IMG/VR virus record: IMGVR_UViG_2706794666_000002 | Direction: 5' to 3' (one strand) | Source: a virus | Taxonomy: Duplodnaviria > Heunggongvirae > Uroviricota > Caudoviricetes | Length of the DNA stretch: 25,129 nucleotides | In this document: positions 1,856 to 25,129 of the stretch, piece after piece | Position numbering within the stretch: the first letter of the stretch is position 1 | Layout: the number at the start of each line of letters is the position of its first letter | Translations under genes and position numbers: made by a program | The notes under the pieces: model-generated | Databases searched by the model: none | Seen by the model: the letters and a program-made list of their open reading frames with translations, nothing else | Told to the model about the DNA's origin: nothing

Positions 1856-1881
<26 letters not shown>
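1336..1881 (+). CDS. nu1: Terminase small subunit Nu1, 181 aa
   Basis: ORF 1336..1881. Protein MEVNKKQLADIFGASIRTIQNWQEQGMPVL... is near-identical to lambda Nu1 with its N-terminal winged helix-turn-helix. Overlaps the start of A by 26 nt, as in lambda. Confidence 0.95.
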
Positions 1882-5569
<3,688 letters not shown>

Positions 5570-16657: not shown

Positions 16658-19600
16658 ATGGGTAAAGGCAGCAGTAAGGGGCATACCCCGCGCGAAGCGA
16701 AGGACAACCTGAAGTCCACGCAGCTGCTGAGTGTGATCGATGCCATCAGCGAAGGGCCGGTTGAAGGTCCGGTGGATGGATTAAAAAGCGTGCTGCTGAA
16801 CAGTACGCCGGTGCTGGACAGTGAGGGGAATACCAACATCTCCGGCGTCACGGTGGTGTTCCGGGCAGGTGAGCAGGAGCAGTCACCGCCGGAGGGATTT
16901 GAATCCTCCGGCTCCGAGACGGTGCTGGGTACGGAAGTGAAATATGACACGCCGATCACCCGGACCATCACGTCGGCAAACATTGACCGACTGCGTTTTA
17001 CCTTCGGTGTACAGGCACTGGTGGAAACCACCTCAAAGGGAGACAGGAATCCGTCTGAAGTTCGCCTGCTGGTTCAGATACAGCGTAACGGTGGCTGGGT
17101 GACGGAAAAAGACATCACCATTAAGGGCAAAACCACCTCGCAGTATCTGGCCTCGGTGGTGGTGGATAACCTGCCGCCGCGCCCGTTTAATATCCGGATG
17201 CGCAGAATGACGCCGGACAGCACCACAGACCAGCTGCAGAACAAAACGCTCTGGTCGTCATACACCGAAATCATCGATGTGAAACAGTGCTACCCGAACA
17301 CGGCACTGGTCGGCGTACAGGTGGATTCGGAGCAGTTCGGCAGCCAGCAGGTGAGCCGTAATTATCATCTTCGCGGGCGCATTCTGCAGGTGCCGTCGAA
17401 CTATAATCCGCAGACGCGGCAATACAGCGGTATCTGGGACGGAACGTTAAAACCGGCATACAGCAACAACATGGCCTGGTGTCTGTGGGATATGCTGACC
17501 CATCCGCGCTATGGCATGGGGAAACGTCTTGGTGCGGCAGATGTGGATAAATGGGCGCTGTATGTCATCGGCCAGTACTGTGACCAGTCGGTGCCGGACG
17601 GCTTTGGCAGCACGGAGCCGCGCATCACCTGTAATGCCTGGCTGACCACACAGCGCAAGGCGTGGGATGTGCTCAGTGATTTCTGCTCGGCGATGCGCTG
17701 TATGCCGGTATGGAACGGGCAGACGCTGACGTTCGTGCAGGACCGACAGTCGGATAAGGTGTGGGCCTATAACCGCAGTAATGTGGTGATGCCGGATGAT
17801 GGCGCGCCGTTCCGCTACAGTTTCAGCGCCCTGAAAGACCGCCATAATGCCGTTGAGGTGAACTGGATTGACCCGGATAACGGCTGGGAGACGGCGACAG
17901 AGCTTGTGGAGGATACGCAGGCCATTGTCCGTTACGGTCGTAACGTCACGAAGATGGATGCCTTTGGCTGTACCAGCCGGGGGCAGGCACACCGCGCCGG
18001 GCTGTGGCTGATTAAAACGGAACTGCTGGAGACGCAGACCGTGGATTTCAGCGTGGGTGCTGAAGGGCTTCGTCATGTACCGGGCGATGTCATTGAAATC
18101 TGCGATGATGACTATGCCGGTATCCGCACCGGCGGGCGCGTGCTGGCGGTGAACAGCCAGACCCGGACGCTGACGCTCGACCGTGAAATCACGCTGCCAT
18201 CCTCCGGCACCACGCTGATAAGCCTGGTTGACGGGCAGGGGAATCCGGTCAGCGTGGAGGTCCAGTCCGTCACCGACGGCGTGAAGGTAAAAGTGAGCCG
18301 TGTTCCTGACGGTGTTGCTGAATACAGCGTGTGGGGGCTGAAGCTGCCGACGCTGCACCAGCGATTGTTCCGCTGCGTGAGTATCCGTGAGAACGACGAC
18401 GGCACGTATGCCATCACCGCCGTGCAGCATGTGCCGGAAAAAGAAGCCATCGTGGATAACGGGGCGCACTTTGACGGCGACCAGAGCGGCACGGTGAATG
18501 GTGTCACGCCGCCAGCGGTGCAGCACCTGACTGCCGAAGTCACCGCAGACAGCGGGGAATATCAGGTGCTGGCGCGCTGGGACACGCCGAAGGTGGTGAA
18601 GGGCGTGAGCTTCCTGCTCCGTCTGACCGTAACAGCGGATGACGGCAGTGAGCGGCTGGTCAGCACGGCCCGGACGACGGAAACCACTTACCGCTTCACA
18701 CAACTGGCGCTGGGGAACTACAGGCTGACAGTCCGGGCAGTAAATGCGTGGGGGCAGCAGGGCGATCCGGCGTCGGTATCGTTCCGGATTGCCGCACCGG
18801 CAGCGCTGTCGCGGATTGAGCTGACGCCGGGCTATTTTCAGATAACCGCCACGCCGCATCTTGCGGTTTATGATCCGACGGTACAGTTTGAGTTCTGGTT
18901 CTCGGAAAAGCGGATTGCGGATATCAGGCAGGTTGAAACCACAGCACGCTATCTTGGCACGGCGCTGTACTGGATAGCCGCCAGTATCAATATCAAACCG
19001 GGCCATGATTATTACTTTTATATCCGCAGTGTGAACACCGTTGGCAAATCGGCATTCGTGGAGGCTGTTGGTCAGCCGAGTGATGATGCATCCGGTTATC
19101 TGGATTTTTTCAAAGGCGAGATAGGGAAAACCCATCTGGCTCAGGAGCTGTGGACGCAGATTGATAACGGTCAGCTTGCGCCTGACCTGGCTGAAATCAG
19201 GACGTCCATTACGGATGTCAGCAATGAAATCACGCAGACCGTCAATAAGAAACTGGAAGACCAGAGTGCGGCAATTCAGCAGATACAGAAGGTTCAGGTT
19301 GATACAAATAATAACCTGAACAGCATGTGGGCTGTGAAGCTGCAGCAGATGCAGGACGGACGCCTTTATATCGCGGGTATTGGTGCCGGTATTGAGAACA
19401 CCCCTGACGGCATGCAGAGTCAGGTGCTGCTGGCGGCGGACAGGATTGCGATGGTTAATCCTGCGAATGGCAACACAAAACCGATGTTTGTTGGTCAGGG
19501 CGATCAGATATTCATGAACGACGTGTTCCTGAAACGCCTGACGGCCCCCACCATTACCAGCGGTGGAAATCCATCGGCATTTTCCCTGACTCCGGACGGA

Positions 19601-20155
19601 AAGCTGACCGCTAAAAATGCGGATATCAGTGGCAGTGTGAATGCGAACGCCGGGACGCTCAACAATGTCACGGTAAATGAAAACTGTACGATTAAGGGCA
19701 TGCTGGAGGCGACTCAGGTCAGAGGTGACTTCGTTAAAGCTGTATCCAAATCATTTCCGAAACAGGCTGGTACGTGGGGTAACACGGAAACACCAAACGG
19801 GACGGTTACAGTCACCATAAGCGATGATCATAACTTTGACCGCCAGATTATTATTCCGCCCATTATTTTTAACGGTATAGCGTATGACGATCCGGGGAGC
19901 GGAAATAACCCAGGAGGCACGCGATACACGGGTTATGGTTTTGAAGTTCGCAAAAACGGCGTATTAATCGCATCCAGAGAAACTAAAGGTGCCATTCCCG
20001 GTAGTTACAGTGCAGTTATTGATATGCCTAGTGGTGGTGGTAGCGTCACTCTGGAGTTTAAGATTTTCCAGAAAGGCAATCAGGGGGCAGGCAATATCAC
20101 CGACTGTACGGTGATTGTGACCAAAAAAGCGGCTTCCGGCATCAGTATTCGTTGA
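16658..20155 (+). CDS. J: Central tail fibre / host specificity protein J, 1165 aa, with a divergent C-terminal receptor-binding region
   Basis: The first roughly 820 residues ([34 protein letters not shown]...) are near-identical to lambda gpJ. The remainder is patchy and the last roughly 150 residues are unrelated to lambda J and lower in GC. Confidence 0.95.
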
Positions 20156-20177
20156 AATATTTATAACCCCAATAAAT

Positions 20178-20204
20178 GGCGTCAGGAATGACGCCTTTTT
20201 TATT
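20178..20204 (+). terminator. Rho-independent terminator downstream of J
   Basis: GGCGTCA-GGAA-TGACGCC (7-bp stem) followed by TTTTTTATT, 23 nt after the J stop. Confidence 0.65.
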
Positions 20205-20225
20205 GCAGAAAAGCGAGAGGTAATT

Positions 20226-20742
20226 ATGCGTAAAGTTTGTGCAGCCATTTTGTCCGCAGCCATTTGCCTGGCCGTATCCGGTGCGCCTGCATGGGCGTCT
20301 GAACATCAGTCCACGCTGAGCGCGGGGTATCTTCATGCCCGGACCAACGTTCCCGGCAGTGATGATCTGAACGGGATTAACGTGAAATACCGTTATGAGT
20401 TTACGGATACGCTGGGGCTGGTGACGTCATTCAGCTATGCAGGAGACAAGAATCGCCAGCTGACCCGTTACAGCGATACCCGCTGGCATGAAGATTCCGT
20501 GCGTAACCGCTGGTTCAGCGTGATGGCGGGGCCGTCTGTGCGCGTGAATGAATGGTTCAGCGCGTATGCGATGGCGGGTGTGGCTTACAGCCGTGTGTCG
20601 ACTTTTTCCGGGGATTATATCCGCGTAACTGACAATAAGGGGAAAACGCACGATGTGCTGACCGGAAGTGATGACGGTCGCCACAGCAACACGTCTCTGG
20701 CGCACTGACGGTTTCATCGTGGGTGTCGGTTATAAATTCTGA
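20226..20742 (+). pseudogene. lom: lom-like Ail/Lom-family outer membrane protein gene, disrupted by a frameshift near the 3' end
   Basis: ORF 20226..20708 has a signal-peptide-like N-terminus (MRKVCAAILSAAICLAVSGAPAWA) and Lom/Ail-like blocks (GINVKYRYEFTD, SVMAGP, SAYAMAGVA). It stops at ...RHSNTSLAH. The conserved C-terminal strand WRTDGFIVGVGYKF-stop is present at 20701..20742 but in the +1 frame. Confidence 0.6.
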
Positions 20743-20796: not shown

Positions 20797-20806
20797 TGGG
20801 GTGAAT

Positions 20807-23716
20807 ATGGCAGTAAAGATTTCAGGTGTACTGAAAGACGGCACAGGAAAACCGGTACAGAACTGCACAATCCAGCTGAAAGCAAAACGTAACAGCACCA
20901 CGGTGGTGGTGAACACGCTGGCCTCAGAAAATCCGGATGAAGCCGGGCGTTACAGCATGGACGTTGAGTACGGTCAGTACAGCGTTATTCTGTTGGTGGA
21001 AGGATTCCCGCCGTCACATGCCGGGACCATCACCGTGTATGAAGATTCCCGACCCGGTACGCTGAATGATTTTCTCGGTGCCATGACGGAGGATGATGCC
21101 CGTCCGGAGGCACTGCGCCGTTTTGAGCTGATGGTGGAAGAGGTGGCGCGTAACGCGTCCGCGGTGGCACAGAACACGGCAGCCGCGAAGAAATCAGCCA
21201 GCGATGCCAGCACATCAGCCCGTGAGGCGGCAACCCATGCGACTGATGCTGCAGATTCAGCACGTGCAGCCAGCACGTCAGCCGGACAGGCCGCTTCGTC
21301 GGCTCAGTCAGCGTCTTCCAGCGCAGGAACGGCATCAACAAAGGCCACTGAAGCCTCAAAAAGTGCTGCCGCTGCAGAGTCCTCAAAAAGCGCGGCGGCT
21401 ACCAGTGCCGGTGCGGCGAAAACGTTAGAAACGAATGCGGCAGCGTCACAACAATCAGCAGCCACTTCTGCATCCACCGCGACCACGAAAGCGTCAGAAG
21501 CTGCCACCTCAGCCCGGGATGCGTCGGCTTCAAAAGAGGCGGCAAAATCATCAGAAACNNNNNNNNNNNNNNNNNNNNNNNNNNNNNNNNNNNNNNNNNN
21601 NNNNNNNNNNNNNNNNNNNNNNNNNNNNNNNNNNNNNNNNNNNNNNNNNNNNNNNNNNNNNNNNNNNNNNNNNNNNNNNNNNNNNNNNNNNNNNNNNNNN
21701 NNNNNNNNNNNNNNNNNNNNNNNNNNNNNNNNNNNNNNNNNNNNNNNNNNNNNNNNNNNNNNNNNNNNNNNNNNNNNNNNNNNNNNNNNNNNNNNNNNNN
21801 NNNNNNNNNNNNNNNNNNNNNNNNNNGAGGCGACCAGACAGGCGTCAGCAGCGAAGGGCAGCGCCACGACGGCATCCACGAAGGCGACAGAGGCTGCTGG
21901 TAGTGCGACGGCAGCAGCTCAGAGCAAAAGTACGGCGGAATCTGCAGCAACGCGCGCTGAGACAGCGGCAAAACGGGCAGAGGATATTGCATCCGCCGTG
22001 GCGCTTGAGGATGCGAGCACGACGAAAAAGGGGATAGTACAGCTCAGTAGTGCGACTAACAGCACTTCCGAGTCACTGGCGGCAACACCAAAAGCCGTTA
22101 AGGCCGCGTATGACCTGGCTAACGGGAAATACACCGCACAGGATGCAACGACAGCACAGAAAGGGATAATCCAGCTAAGCAGCGCGACCAACAGCACGTC
22201 TGAAACGCTGGCGGCAACGCCAAAGGCAGTAAAAGCAGCCAATGACAATGCTGAGAAACGTCTGCAGAAAGATCAGAACGGTGCGGATATCCCTGGCAAA
22301 GACACCTTTACGAAAAATATTGGTGCCTGCCGTGCCTTCGGTGGGTCAGTAAGCACAACAACAGGAAACTGGACGACTGCACAGTTTATCGAGTGGCTGG
22401 ATTCTCAGGGAGCATTTAACCATCCATACTGGATGTGCAAGGGTTCCTGGTCTTATGGCAATAATAAAATCATTACTGATACTGGCTGCGGTAATATTCA
22501 TCTCGCCGGAGCTGTCATTGAAGTAATGGGGATAAAGTCAGCGATGACGATCCGCATTACCACTCCGACCACATCCAGCGGTGGCGGAACAACCAACGCC
22601 CAGTTTACCTATATTAATCACGGAACAGATTATTCACCTGGCTGGCGAAGGGACTATAACTCCAGAAATAAGCCAACGGCATCAGAGATCGGGGCGCTAC
22701 CGTCAGGTGGAACAGCAGTATCATCAGTTAATCTGGCTTCAAAAGGTCGGGTAGCCGCGCTGACAGACAATACGCAGGGGGCAGCAGGTCTTGAGTTATA
22801 CGAGGTGTATAACAACGGATATCCAACAGCGTATGGAAATATCATTCACCTGAAAGGGATGACAGCCGTTGGCGAAGGTGAGTTACTCATCGGCTGGAGT
22901 GGTACAAGCGGTGCTCATGCTCCGGCATTTATTCGTTCACGACGGGATACGACCGACGCAAACTGGTCGCCGTGGGCGCAGCTTTACACCTCGGCTCATC
23001 CTCCTGCAGAGTTTTATCCAGTCGGTGCACCAATCCCGTGGCCATCAGATACCGTTCCGTCTGGTTATGCCCTGATGCAGGGGCAGACTTTTGACAAATC
23101 TGCTTACCCGAAACTTGCAGCCGCTTATCCGTCAGGCGTGATCCCTGATATGCGTGGCTGGACGATTAAGGGCAAGCCCGCCAGTGGTCGTGCCGTATTG
23201 TCTCAGGAACAGGATGGCATTAAATCGCACACCCACAGCGCCAGCGCATCCAGTACGGATTTGGGGACGAAAACCACATCGTCGTTTGATTACGGCACTA
23301 AATCCACGAATAACACCGGGGCGCATACGCACAGTCTGAGCGGCTCTACAAGTTCAGCTGGGGCCCACCAACATAGTCAGACTGGGCCCAGAACGAATAG
23401 CGGGAGTCAACCTACTGGAATGTTTCCGGCAGGGAGTACTCAAGTTAGCGGGACTAATCAGGTTGGTATCAGTGGCTCATTAACCAGTGGCACCTCCCAA
23501 TGGGTAGGTAAATCATCTTCAGAAGGAAACCATACACACTCACTGTCCGGCACAGCAGCATCTGCGGGTGCACACGCGCATACTGTCGGTATTGGTGCTC
23601 ATACGCACTCTGTTGCGATTGGTTCACATGGACACACCATCACCGTTAACGCTGCTGGTAACGCGGAAAACACCGTCAAAAACATCGCATTTAACTATAT
23701 TGTGAGGCTCGCATAA
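20807..23716 (+). CDS. stf: Side tail fibre protein Stf (about 969 aa as written; contains a 268-nt N run)
   Basis: N-terminus [60 protein letters not shown] and C-terminus ...[31 protein letters not shown] match lambda Stf. The frame is continuous across the N run. The central about 230 residues are not lambda-like. Confidence 0.9.
21559..21826. other. Run of 268 undetermined bases (N) inside stf
   Basis: Directly visible. Falls inside the Ala/Ser/Thr-rich low-complexity part of Stf. Confidence 1.
22027..22240 (+). repeat. Two imperfect direct copies (about 82 nt each, about 132 nt apart) encoding the phage tail-fibre repeat motif
   Basis: 22027..22108 encodes [30 protein letters not shown]. 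22159..22240 encodes [30 protein letters not shown]. Confidence 0.75.
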
Positions 23717-24297
23717 TGGCATTCAGAATGAGTGAACAAGCACGGACCATAAAAATTTATAACCTGCTGGCCGGAACTAATGAATTTATTGGTGAAGGTG
23801 ACGCATATATTCCGCCTCATACAGGTCTGCCTGCAAACAGTACCGATATTGCACCGCCAGATATTCCGGCTGGTTTCGTGGCTGTTTTCAACAGTGATGA
23901 GTCATCGTGGCATCTCGTTGAAGATCATCGGGGTAAAACGGTTTATGACGTGGCTTCCGGCGACGCGTTATTTATTTCTGAACTCGGCTCATTACCGGAA
24001 AATGTCACCTGGTTATCCCCGGAAGGGGAGTTTCAGAAGTGGAACGGCACAGCCTGGGTGAAGGATACGGAAGCAGAAAAACTGTTCCGGATCCGGGAGG
24101 CGGAAGAAACAAAAAACAGCCTGATGCAGGTAGCCAGTGAGCATATAGCGCCGCTTCAGGATGCTGTGGATCTGGAGATCGCAACGGAGAAAGAAACCTT
24201 GTTGCTGGAAGCTTGGAAAAAGTATCGGGTGTTGCTGAACCGTGTTGATACATCAACTGCACCGGATATTGAATGGCCAGTAGCACCTATAGGGTAA
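23716..24297 (+). CDS. tfa: Tail fibre assembly chaperone Tfa, 193 aa
   Basis: [54 protein letters not shown]... matches lambda Tfa. Start overlaps the stf stop (TAATGG). The last few residues (WPVAPIG) differ from lambda as I recall it. Confidence 0.9.
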
Positions 24298-24380
24298 ATT
24301 CGTAATGATTACCTAAATACGTTATTCTTTTGTTAAAAAAGTGATTTTGCTATAGGTAGGGAGTATGTTCTTGGATTAAG

Positions 24381-24414
24381 AATAAAAAATCGCCATGAAA
24401 GAGCTTCATGGCGA
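24381..24414 (-). terminator. Intrinsic-terminator-like hairpin oriented for leftward (minus-strand) transcription
   Basis: Perfect 10-bp inverted repeat TCGCCATGAA / TTCATGGCGA with a 5-nt loop at 24390..24414. On the minus strand it is followed by TTTTTTATT (plus-strand AATAAAAAA at 24381..24389). Confidence 0.5.
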
Positions 24415-24562
24415 GTACATAAACGTACAAAATGTGATGAAAGTAGAGTGGCGTAAGCCACTATATTAAGATATGACAATAGCGAAGAAAAGTAAATAAC
24501 ATTTTATGGACGTTTAATTGTTAATTATAAAAACTAGAGTGCCCGATATTGTTTATCTTGCT

Positions 24563-24664
24563 TTAAAATAATGTACTCAAACCAAATTTTTGAGCTAAAA
24601 GCTCAAATAATATAAATGCAATAATAATGTTTAATAAGACAATTAGCTTGCTTTGTATTTTCAT
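24563..24664 (-). CDS. Candidate small hydrophobic peptide ORF, 33 aa (speculative)
   Basis: Minus-strand translation MKIQSKLIVLLNIIIAFILFELLAQKFGLSTLF, one predicted transmembrane helix. No convincing Shine-Dalgarno. A sigma70-like promoter candidate lies upstream and the hairpin terminator about 150 nt downstream. The AT-rich context makes chance ORFs of this type common. Confidence 0.2.
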   Translation of the reverse strand: MKIQSKLIVLLNIIIAFILFELLAQKFGLSTLF

Positions 24665-24698
24665 TTCGGAATACTGTTAAGTAACTTTGATGACCCTA

Positions 24699-24727
24699 AC
24701 AATAGATCGGAATTTTCTTAGAGTCAA
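24699..24727 (-). promoter_or_regulatory. Candidate sigma70 promoter on the minus strand (TTGACT, 17 bp, TATTGT)
   Basis: Minus-strand -35 TTGACT (plus 24722..24727) and -10 TATTGT (plus 24699..24704) with a 17-bp spacer. About 30 nt upstream of the candidate small ORF. Confidence 0.3.
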
Positions 24728-25046
24728 TGGTCACTGTTTTTGCTTGCAAAGCAAATGTTTTGGTGGTTATAAGTCGTCTTAATATAGTCACGCATGCAAC
24801 TTGTTCCATGCGGAGATTAAAGATTGGAATATAACGCGAAGATGGAATTAAATTACATTTGCAATAATTAATTTATTATTACTCAATAATTACCGATATT
24901 ATTATTGTAAATTAATCATTAGAATGCAAAAAGAAATGTAACGGCAAAATAAGAGGACGATAGCTGAGAAAAAAGCGTGCTTTCCCAATCTGGGGCAAAT
25001 CACGTCTGAATGACACCTGAAAACAGGTGGTAGCCTCAAGAAGGCT

Positions 25047-25129
25047 GGTGATGCTGCCAACTTACTGATTTAGTGTATGATGGTGTTTTTGAGGTGCTCC
25101 AGTGGCTTCTGTTTCTATCAGCTGTCCCT
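25047..25129 (+). mobile_element. IS1 left end (left terminal inverted repeat and start of insA), truncated by the window edge
   Basis: GGTGATGCTGCCAACTTACTGATTTAGTGTATGATGGTGTTTTTGAGGTGCTCCAGTGGCTTCTGTTTCTATCAGCTGTCCCT matches the IS1 left terminus as I remember it. Confidence 0.9.
25102..25129 (+). CDS. insA: IS1 InsA, 5' end only (GTG start; continues beyond the window)
   Basis: GTG GCT TCT GTT TCT ATC AGC TGT CCC encodes (M)ASVSISCP, the InsA N-terminus. Confidence 0.8.

Follow-up and report, generated by a model that had tools for sequence, protein, structure and literature searches.

A mosaic J gene in a lambda-like prophage with a 434-type receptor-binding tip, predicted to be directed at OmpC

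Which receptor would be recognized by a lambda-like tail tip whose distal third departs from the lambda sequence? The question is raised by gene J of a 25,129-nucleotide stretch of DNA (hereafter, the window; IMG/VR record IMGVR_UViG_2706794666_000002), for which a first-pass annotation had described a J protein that is lambda-like for about 820 residues and mosaic thereafter, and had proposed a receptor specificity different from that of lambda. Here, we compared this J with those of sequenced phages and with solved tail-tip structures. The reading that we regard as probable is that of a mosaic J in a lambda-like prophage, with a tip of the phage 434 type that would be directed at the porin OmpC.

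The gene itself is an ordinary member of its family. Its reading frame runs for 3.5 kb without interruption, and six Pfam families follow one another along the protein (FNIII-A_GpJ, Phage-tail_3, Ig_J, Ig_J_second, Phage_Tail_Tip, and Ig_GpJ_C), each scoring 89-146 bits against cut-offs of 22-29 bits, so that the domain series of a lambda-type J is complete (Table 1). Upstream, open reading frames of 853, 109, 232, 247, and 223 aa match lambda H, M, L, K, and I in length; downstream lie lom, stf, and tfa, which reproduces the order of the lambda tail genes, and the same neighbors, with matching Pfam families, were called in other assemblies. The lom gene is truncated (160 aa of a 199-position profile), a short form that was also called in two of five other assemblies. 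Phage 434 has an annotated terminator at the site equivalent to the hairpin that follows J. An antisense open reading frame of 562 aa lies within J (17447..19135); we regard it as a frame of the type that is common opposite GC-rich coding sequence.

Table 1. Gene J, its segments, and the hairpin that follows it (positions in the window)
Feature	Position	Strand	Description
Gene J (tip attachment / central tail fiber protein)	16658..20155	+	Single open reading frame, 1165 aa plus stop (ORF list, translation)
J residues 1-805	16658..19072	+	Conserved lambda-like part: hub domains and two FNIII/Ig domains
J residues 806-950	19073..19507	+	Alternative "long-shaft" allele: alpha-helical shaft and upper fiber
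21- and 7-codon insertions relative to lambda	19163..19255	+	Residues 836-856 and 860-866; 28 of the 33 extra residues (indel table)
J residues 951-1005	19508..19672	+	Beta-prism block conserved across all alleles compared
J residues 1006-1165	19673..20152	+	434-type receptor-binding domain (Ig-like), predicted OmpC binder
Terminator-like hairpin 3' of J	20178..20201	+	GGCGTCA-ggaa-TGACGCC, then TTTTTT; read from the sequence

The window is a prophage fragment with an insertion sequence at either edge, the end of IS2 occupying positions 1-77 and that of IS1 positions 25047-25129. Such edges fit a draft-assembly contig of an IS-rich Shigella genome. Two irregularities elsewhere in the window proved to be effects of masked bases: the dip in GC content at 21450-21900 (0.17-0.20), in stf, is due to 268 N at 21559-21826, and the apparent frameshift in the gene for the terminase large subunit (open reading frames 1856..3442 and 3123..3788) is caused by 255 N at 3140-3394 and not by mutation.

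Alignment of the J protein with those of lambda, 434, phi458, and Lambda_2G7a divides it into four segments with different affinities. Over residues 1-805, identity is uniformly high (lambda 97.1%, 434 97.8%, phi458 97.6%, Lambda_2G7a 97.8%). Over residues 806-950, it is 41% with lambda and about 41%-42% with 434, as against 100% with phi458 and 98.6% with Lambda_2G7a. Residues 951-1005 are again alike in all (lambda 94.5%, 434 90.9%, phi458 98.2%, Lambda_2G7a 83.6%), and over residues 1006-1165 the affinities are redistributed, with 94.4% identity to 434 (151/160, gapless) and 96.9% to phi458, against 38% to lambda and 40.6% to Lambda_2G7a. At the DNA level, breakpoints lie near 19065, 19500, and 19700, and all five sequences converge in the conserved block of residues 951-1005, which is likely, from these comparisons, to be a recombination linker, or crossover site, between two variable modules. 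The mosaic structure that had been proposed thus stands, and both peptides quoted in its support are present, one of 31 residues at 942-972 and one ending in RETKG at 1073-1111; the boundary, however, had been placed slightly late, at residue 820 (position 19120), when divergence from lambda begins at about residue 806 (~19065-19073).

The protein is, as had been noted, 33 residues longer than lambda J (1165 vs. 1132 aa). The sources of this difference are two insertions in the shaft (+21 and +7), four longer tip loops (+2, +6, +1, and +2), and one shorter tip loop (-6). In the domain naming of lambda J, the segment of residues 806-950 corresponds to the alpha-helical shaft and the upper beta-prism fiber (PMC11101478). 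A single-sequence AlphaFold model draws residues 841-899 as one long helix, with block-mean pLDDT of 79-90 for residues 846-885 in a model whose overall mean is only 55. A 3-4 spacing of hydrophobic residues can be read directly from L844 onward, and automated heptad scoring of the insertion gave no decisive outcome. It is a reasonable inference from the model that the long-shaft allele would give a shaft physically longer than that of lambda.

A sensitive DNA search of sequenced phages with the region 19120-20155 placed the same modules in other company. The long shaft occurs together with a 434-type tip in ev099, phi458, ev243, PhiR68_2, and Stx2a_WGPS6, and with other tips in Lambda_2G7a, 1H12, ev017, and 640R1; the short, lambda-type shaft occurs with a 434-type tip in 434, 2B8, mEp460, and many Stx1a and Stx2c phages, and with the lambda tip in lambda and HK630. 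Among these phages, two alleles of the shaft and three or more of the tip thus occur in varied combinations, which shows modular exchange around the conserved block, and the horizontal exchange of the receptor-binding module that the first-pass annotation had proposed is borne out by these recombined alleles, the tip here being of the 434 type. Within the tip, the first half has eight nucleotide differences from phi458 and 19 from 434, and the second half has 19 from phi458 and seven from 434, a distribution that suggests an additional exchange inside the domain.

The closest relatives of the whole gene share both modules. The J proteins of phi458, ev099, ev243, cdtI, Ayreon, mEp332, PhiR34_1, Kati, and Stx2a_WGPS6 have the same long shaft, the same 434-type tip, and the same length of 1165 aa, and their genes differ from that of the window by point differences only, with 95.5%-96.4% DNA identity over the whole gene (98% for the phi458 protein). 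Phage 434 shares the tip, and likewise the terminator and a lom-type gene downstream, but its J (1137 aa) has the short lambda-type shaft, so that the shaft of the window J is 28 residues longer. Lambda J (NP_040600; 8xck, 8xcj, 8iyk) has the same order of domains, namely hub, two FNIII domains, helical shaft, beta-prism, and Ig-like tip, but it differs in a shaft shorter by those 28 residues, in the diverged tip, and in its receptor, LamB (PMC11101478). Lambda_2G7a has the long shaft in common with the window J, and its tip aligns closely with that of the A8 gpJ chimera (9wca, 9wcb), which has the same fold as the window tip, binds OmpC, and is its top PDB match by both sequence and fold; the tips of A8 and Lambda_2G7a (45% and 40.6% identical to that of the window) nevertheless form a separate allele group with another set of loops.

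The last ~150 residues had been called unrelated to the LamB-binding domain of lambda, and this claim does not hold. The family PF12421 (Ig_GpJ_C) matches residues 1029-1164 with 89.2 bits, well above its cut-off of 26.2 (E = 3.2e-25), and the match takes in positions 1-134 of the 135-position profile; the tip also aligns with the solved lambda gpJ up to the last residue. An AlphaFold model of residues 996-1165, a monomer built from a 12-sequence alignment, is all-beta with a mean pLDDT of 74 (118 of the 170 residues at 70 or above). Foldseek matched this model to 9wcb (E = 1.4e-13) and to 8xck and 8xcj (E ~ 3e-13), with a query TM-score of 0.68 in which a disordered N-terminal lead of 26 residues is counted; the tips of lambda gpJ (8xck, 8xcj) and A8 gpJ (9wca, 9wcb), at E ~ 1e-13, were its sole strong matches in the PDB. 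Structure prediction, which had been suggested as a check, thus returns a lambda-like fold and speaks for homology, and on alignment and model together the tip is a diverged homologous allele of the receptor-binding domain of lambda, with the same fold.

The indels within that fold lie mostly where natural J proteins are known to vary. In an alignment of 1207 natural J homologs, the specificity region (lambda residues 960-1132) was hypervariable, with indel hotspots at residues 1012, 1048-49, 1077-78, and 1107 (Maddamsetti et al. 2018; PMC6646904). Compared with lambda, the window tip has indels following lambda residues 1011, 1051, 1078, and 1099 and a further one at 1109-1114. Four of these five coincide with the hotspots or lie a few residues away, and the remaining one, which follows 1099, is some eight residues short of 1107. 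The specificity region and loop lengths of the LamB-specific allele of lambda are accordingly not those found here, and the alignment with lambda J that had been suggested as a further check showed a C terminus that is not the same.

Base composition was a further part of the earlier argument. The drop toward the 3' end is real: the GC content of 19120-20155 is 0.499, lower than in any stretch of equal length (1036 nt) from the structural genes (mean 0.574, SD 0.018), and the last 483 nt of J (GC 0.47, GC3 0.45) are the lowest against all 663 equal-sized structural-gene windows (mean 0.573, SD 0.026; z = -4), whereas the DNA for residues 1-805 has a GC content of 0.588 and a GC3 of 0.71. As an argument for horizontal transfer, however, this is weaker than had been supposed. 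The DNA for residues 806-950 has a GC content of 0.513, the corresponding lambda segment one of 0.524, and every allele compared falls at 0.51-0.52; only the tip differs, with 0.47-0.48 in the 434 and Lambda_2G7a types against 0.546 in lambda. GC content is thus only partly useful as a sign of foreign origin, and because the fiber segment is equally low in lambda, the case for recombination rests on the comparison of alleles.

The identity of the tip follows from its nearest characterized relatives. It is near-identical to that of phage 434 J (UMO75286.1, OL657226), with equal loop lengths and nine substitutions in 160 residues, and the J C terminus of lambda h434 imm21 (OM418627), a hybrid built with the classical 434 host-range allele (PMC9119081), is 93% identical to it and represents the same domain. 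Judged by these alignments, the tip is the phage 434 (h434) receptor-binding allele, a type that the first-pass annotation had not recognized. Lambda is reported to turn to OmpC, on which 434 itself relies, once its J is exchanged for that of 434 (PMC3509688; PMC11101478), a result that a citing preprint traces to Hantke (1978), and the 434 tip has been described as OmpC-targeting and 35%-40% identical to that of lambda (PMC12502783). Lambda has likewise been redirected to OmpC by grafting other natural gpJ tips onto it (PMC11338833), and for one of these, that of A8, a structure with bound OmpC has been solved (9wcb). A receptor-prediction preprint, the HepS and SNIPE papers, and a CRISPRi screen gave no receptor data on 434-type J. 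Because the tip is 94% identical to that of 434, we infer OmpC specificity: the porin bound would most likely be OmpC rather than LamB, which supports the earlier proposal that specificity differs from that of lambda. With nine differences from 434, the tip may accept only some OmpC variants, and K-12 OmpC may not be among them.

Other readings of the tip can be weighed against this one. Membership of the same domain family and possession of the same fold are what would be expected if the tip still bound LamB and had merely drifted neutrally from that of lambda, but the tip is only 38% identical to that of lambda, each of the four specificity hotspots has an indel at it or nearby, and the tip is near-identical to an allele whose reported effect is to move lambda from LamB to OmpC (PMC3509688; PMC11101478), all of which makes this highly improbable. 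A subtler possibility is that the tip is 434-like with a shifted specificity, for certain OmpC alleles (e.g., the Shigella or EHEC type as opposed to that of K-12) or for another porin such as OmpF. The tip has nine substitutions in 160 residues. Among these is G1143, whose lambda counterpart, H1104, lies three residues from lambda position 1107, which is critical for specificity; 434 has R here, and lambda h434 imm21 has W. Variation recurs at the same few positions in 434-type database fragments, the natural gpJ variants A8 and 1A2 tell OmpC alleles apart (PMC11338833), and a handful of point mutations shifts lambda J to OmpF (PMC6646904). Against these points, the tip has no loop indels relative to 434, its codon differences from 434 (12 synonymous, nine nonsynonymous) show no striking excess of amino acid changes and taken alone no sign of positive selection, and no member of the 434-type allele group carries an experimental hint of another receptor. 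We therefore think it unlikely that S1032, Q1036/A1037, N1047, I1136, Q1138, and G1143 have retuned the tip to a particular OmpC allele or another porin, and list them as candidates; if they had, the substituted positions could be a limited natural repertoire of specificity switches, following the diversity of OmpC.

The remaining alternative concerns present use of the module, and not its identity: J could be a relic in a decaying prophage, with no current role in receptor binding, and could have stayed intact because the Shigella sonnei clone is young. The IS ends that bound the window and the shortened lom point in this direction, and the exact J protein is found mostly on contigs of 20-50 kb, as expected for draft assemblies broken at IS copies. 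The unbroken reading frame of J points the other way, as do the remaining head and tail genes of the window, which look full length, masked runs of N aside, and the plaque-capable free phages phi458, Ayreon, mEp332, and PhiR34_1, whose J genes are 96% identical in DNA. We find a relic doubtful, if a good deal less so than a shift in specificity.

The preferred reading, a mosaic J with a 434-type tip directed at OmpC, can be put together as follows. This is the J of a lambda-like prophage of a kind found in Shigella sonnei and many E. coli, with a distal third made of recombined, interchangeable modules: the lambda hub and FNIII domains are followed by a common alternative shaft (+28 residues), a conserved block of ~55 residues that is the likely crossover site, and the Ig-like tip of 434 (h434). 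By analogy with the lambda structures (PMC11101478), the bottom loops of the three tip domains would insert into a trimeric porin, predicted from 434 to be OmpC, and the spreading of the tip would be passed along the beta-prism and the helical shaft to open the tail.

This J is widely distributed. Public collections list the exact 1165-residue protein, correctly named, on 1000 contigs or more ("host specificity protein J [Shigella sonnei]" or "MULTISPECIES ... [Shigella]"), and it is indexed in 4293 blocks of an assembly collection, one 4.99-Mb chromosome record among them. Of 5426 complete E. coli genomes, 1167 match 80% or more of the region 18900-20300, which spans the C-terminal third of J and the beginning of lom. 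A scan of species-representative genomes placed the 434-type tip at three loci, confined to Escherichia apart from one short contig labeled Collinsella, which is probably mis-binned.

Descriptions already exist of this very protein and the allele group to which it belongs, of the indel hotspots, and of the receptor used by the nearest characterized relative. The finding raises no new question and has little significance beyond correct annotation. It is a clean textbook case of modular exchange in the tail-tip genes of lambdoid phages, and natural gpJ tips of this kind have already been used by engineers to retarget lambda particles to OmpC. For annotation, its value is to indicate OmpC, rather than LamB, as the expected route of adsorption should the prophage be active.

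Insertion sequences bound the prophage segment, since the window opens on the end of an IS2 element and closes on the start of an IS1 (see the table below), and such a pattern is as expected for a contig from a Shigella draft assembly. Two runs of N have further consequences for how the sequence is read. The reading frame of gene A appears as two open reading frames (1856..3442 and 3123..3788) because of the run of N that lies within it, and this run has 7 bases more than the stretch of lambda sequence in whose place it stands. The dip in GC content to 0.17-0.20 is false, being produced by the runs of N.

Features at the ends of the window, downstream of J and at the runs of N
Feature	Window position	Length	Remark
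IS2 end	1-77	77 bases	terminal part of IS2; matches annotated copies of the element at 100%
Run of N	3140-3394	255 bases	within terminase large subunit gene (gene A)
lom	20226-20708	160 aa only	Ail/Lom profile match
stf (side tail fibre gene)	20801-23716	971 aa as read	interrupted by run of N
Run of N	21559-21826	268 bases	within stf
Tail fibre assembly gene	23716-24297	193 aa	next after stf; Pfam Caudo_TAP
AT-rich stretch	24298-25046		downstream of tfa; GC 0.29-0.35
IS1 end	25047-25129	83 bases	first bases of IS1

Downstream of J, the lom product covers positions 1-159 of the 199 in the Ail/Lom profile, and the last beta-strands are therefore absent; of five further assemblies examined that carry the exact J, two (loci L007 and L008) also have a lom called with the same 160 aa. 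The stf product is Ala/Ser-rich in its N-terminal half and has repeated G-x-H-x-H motifs close to its C-terminus. Within the AT-rich stretch that follows tfa there is no open reading frame of more than ~50 aa, and phages mEp332, PhiR70_1, and ev099 share this stretch at 98.5-99.2% identity in the corresponding region, where it is either without annotation or labelled "hypothetical protein."

A scan of species-representative genomes with the J tip also returned a contig of 1350 bases (JAGZNZ010000056.1; locus L011) encoding a J tip 99% identical to that of the window. Binning placed this contig in a metagenome-assembled genome labelled "Collinsella sp.," and the contig is most likely a mis-binned prophage fragment from Escherichia or Shigella.

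Within J itself, an antisense open frame of 562 aa occupies 17447-19135 on the minus strand, and we take it to be a putative by-product of GC-rich coding sequence. On the sense strand, residue F952 of J (window 19511-19513) aligns with F924 of lambda J. The F924S substitution in lambda J confers escape from the Gifsy-1 abortive-infection nuclease HepS (PMC13043305); wild-type, HepS-sensitive lambda has phenylalanine at this position, and the J of the window retains it.
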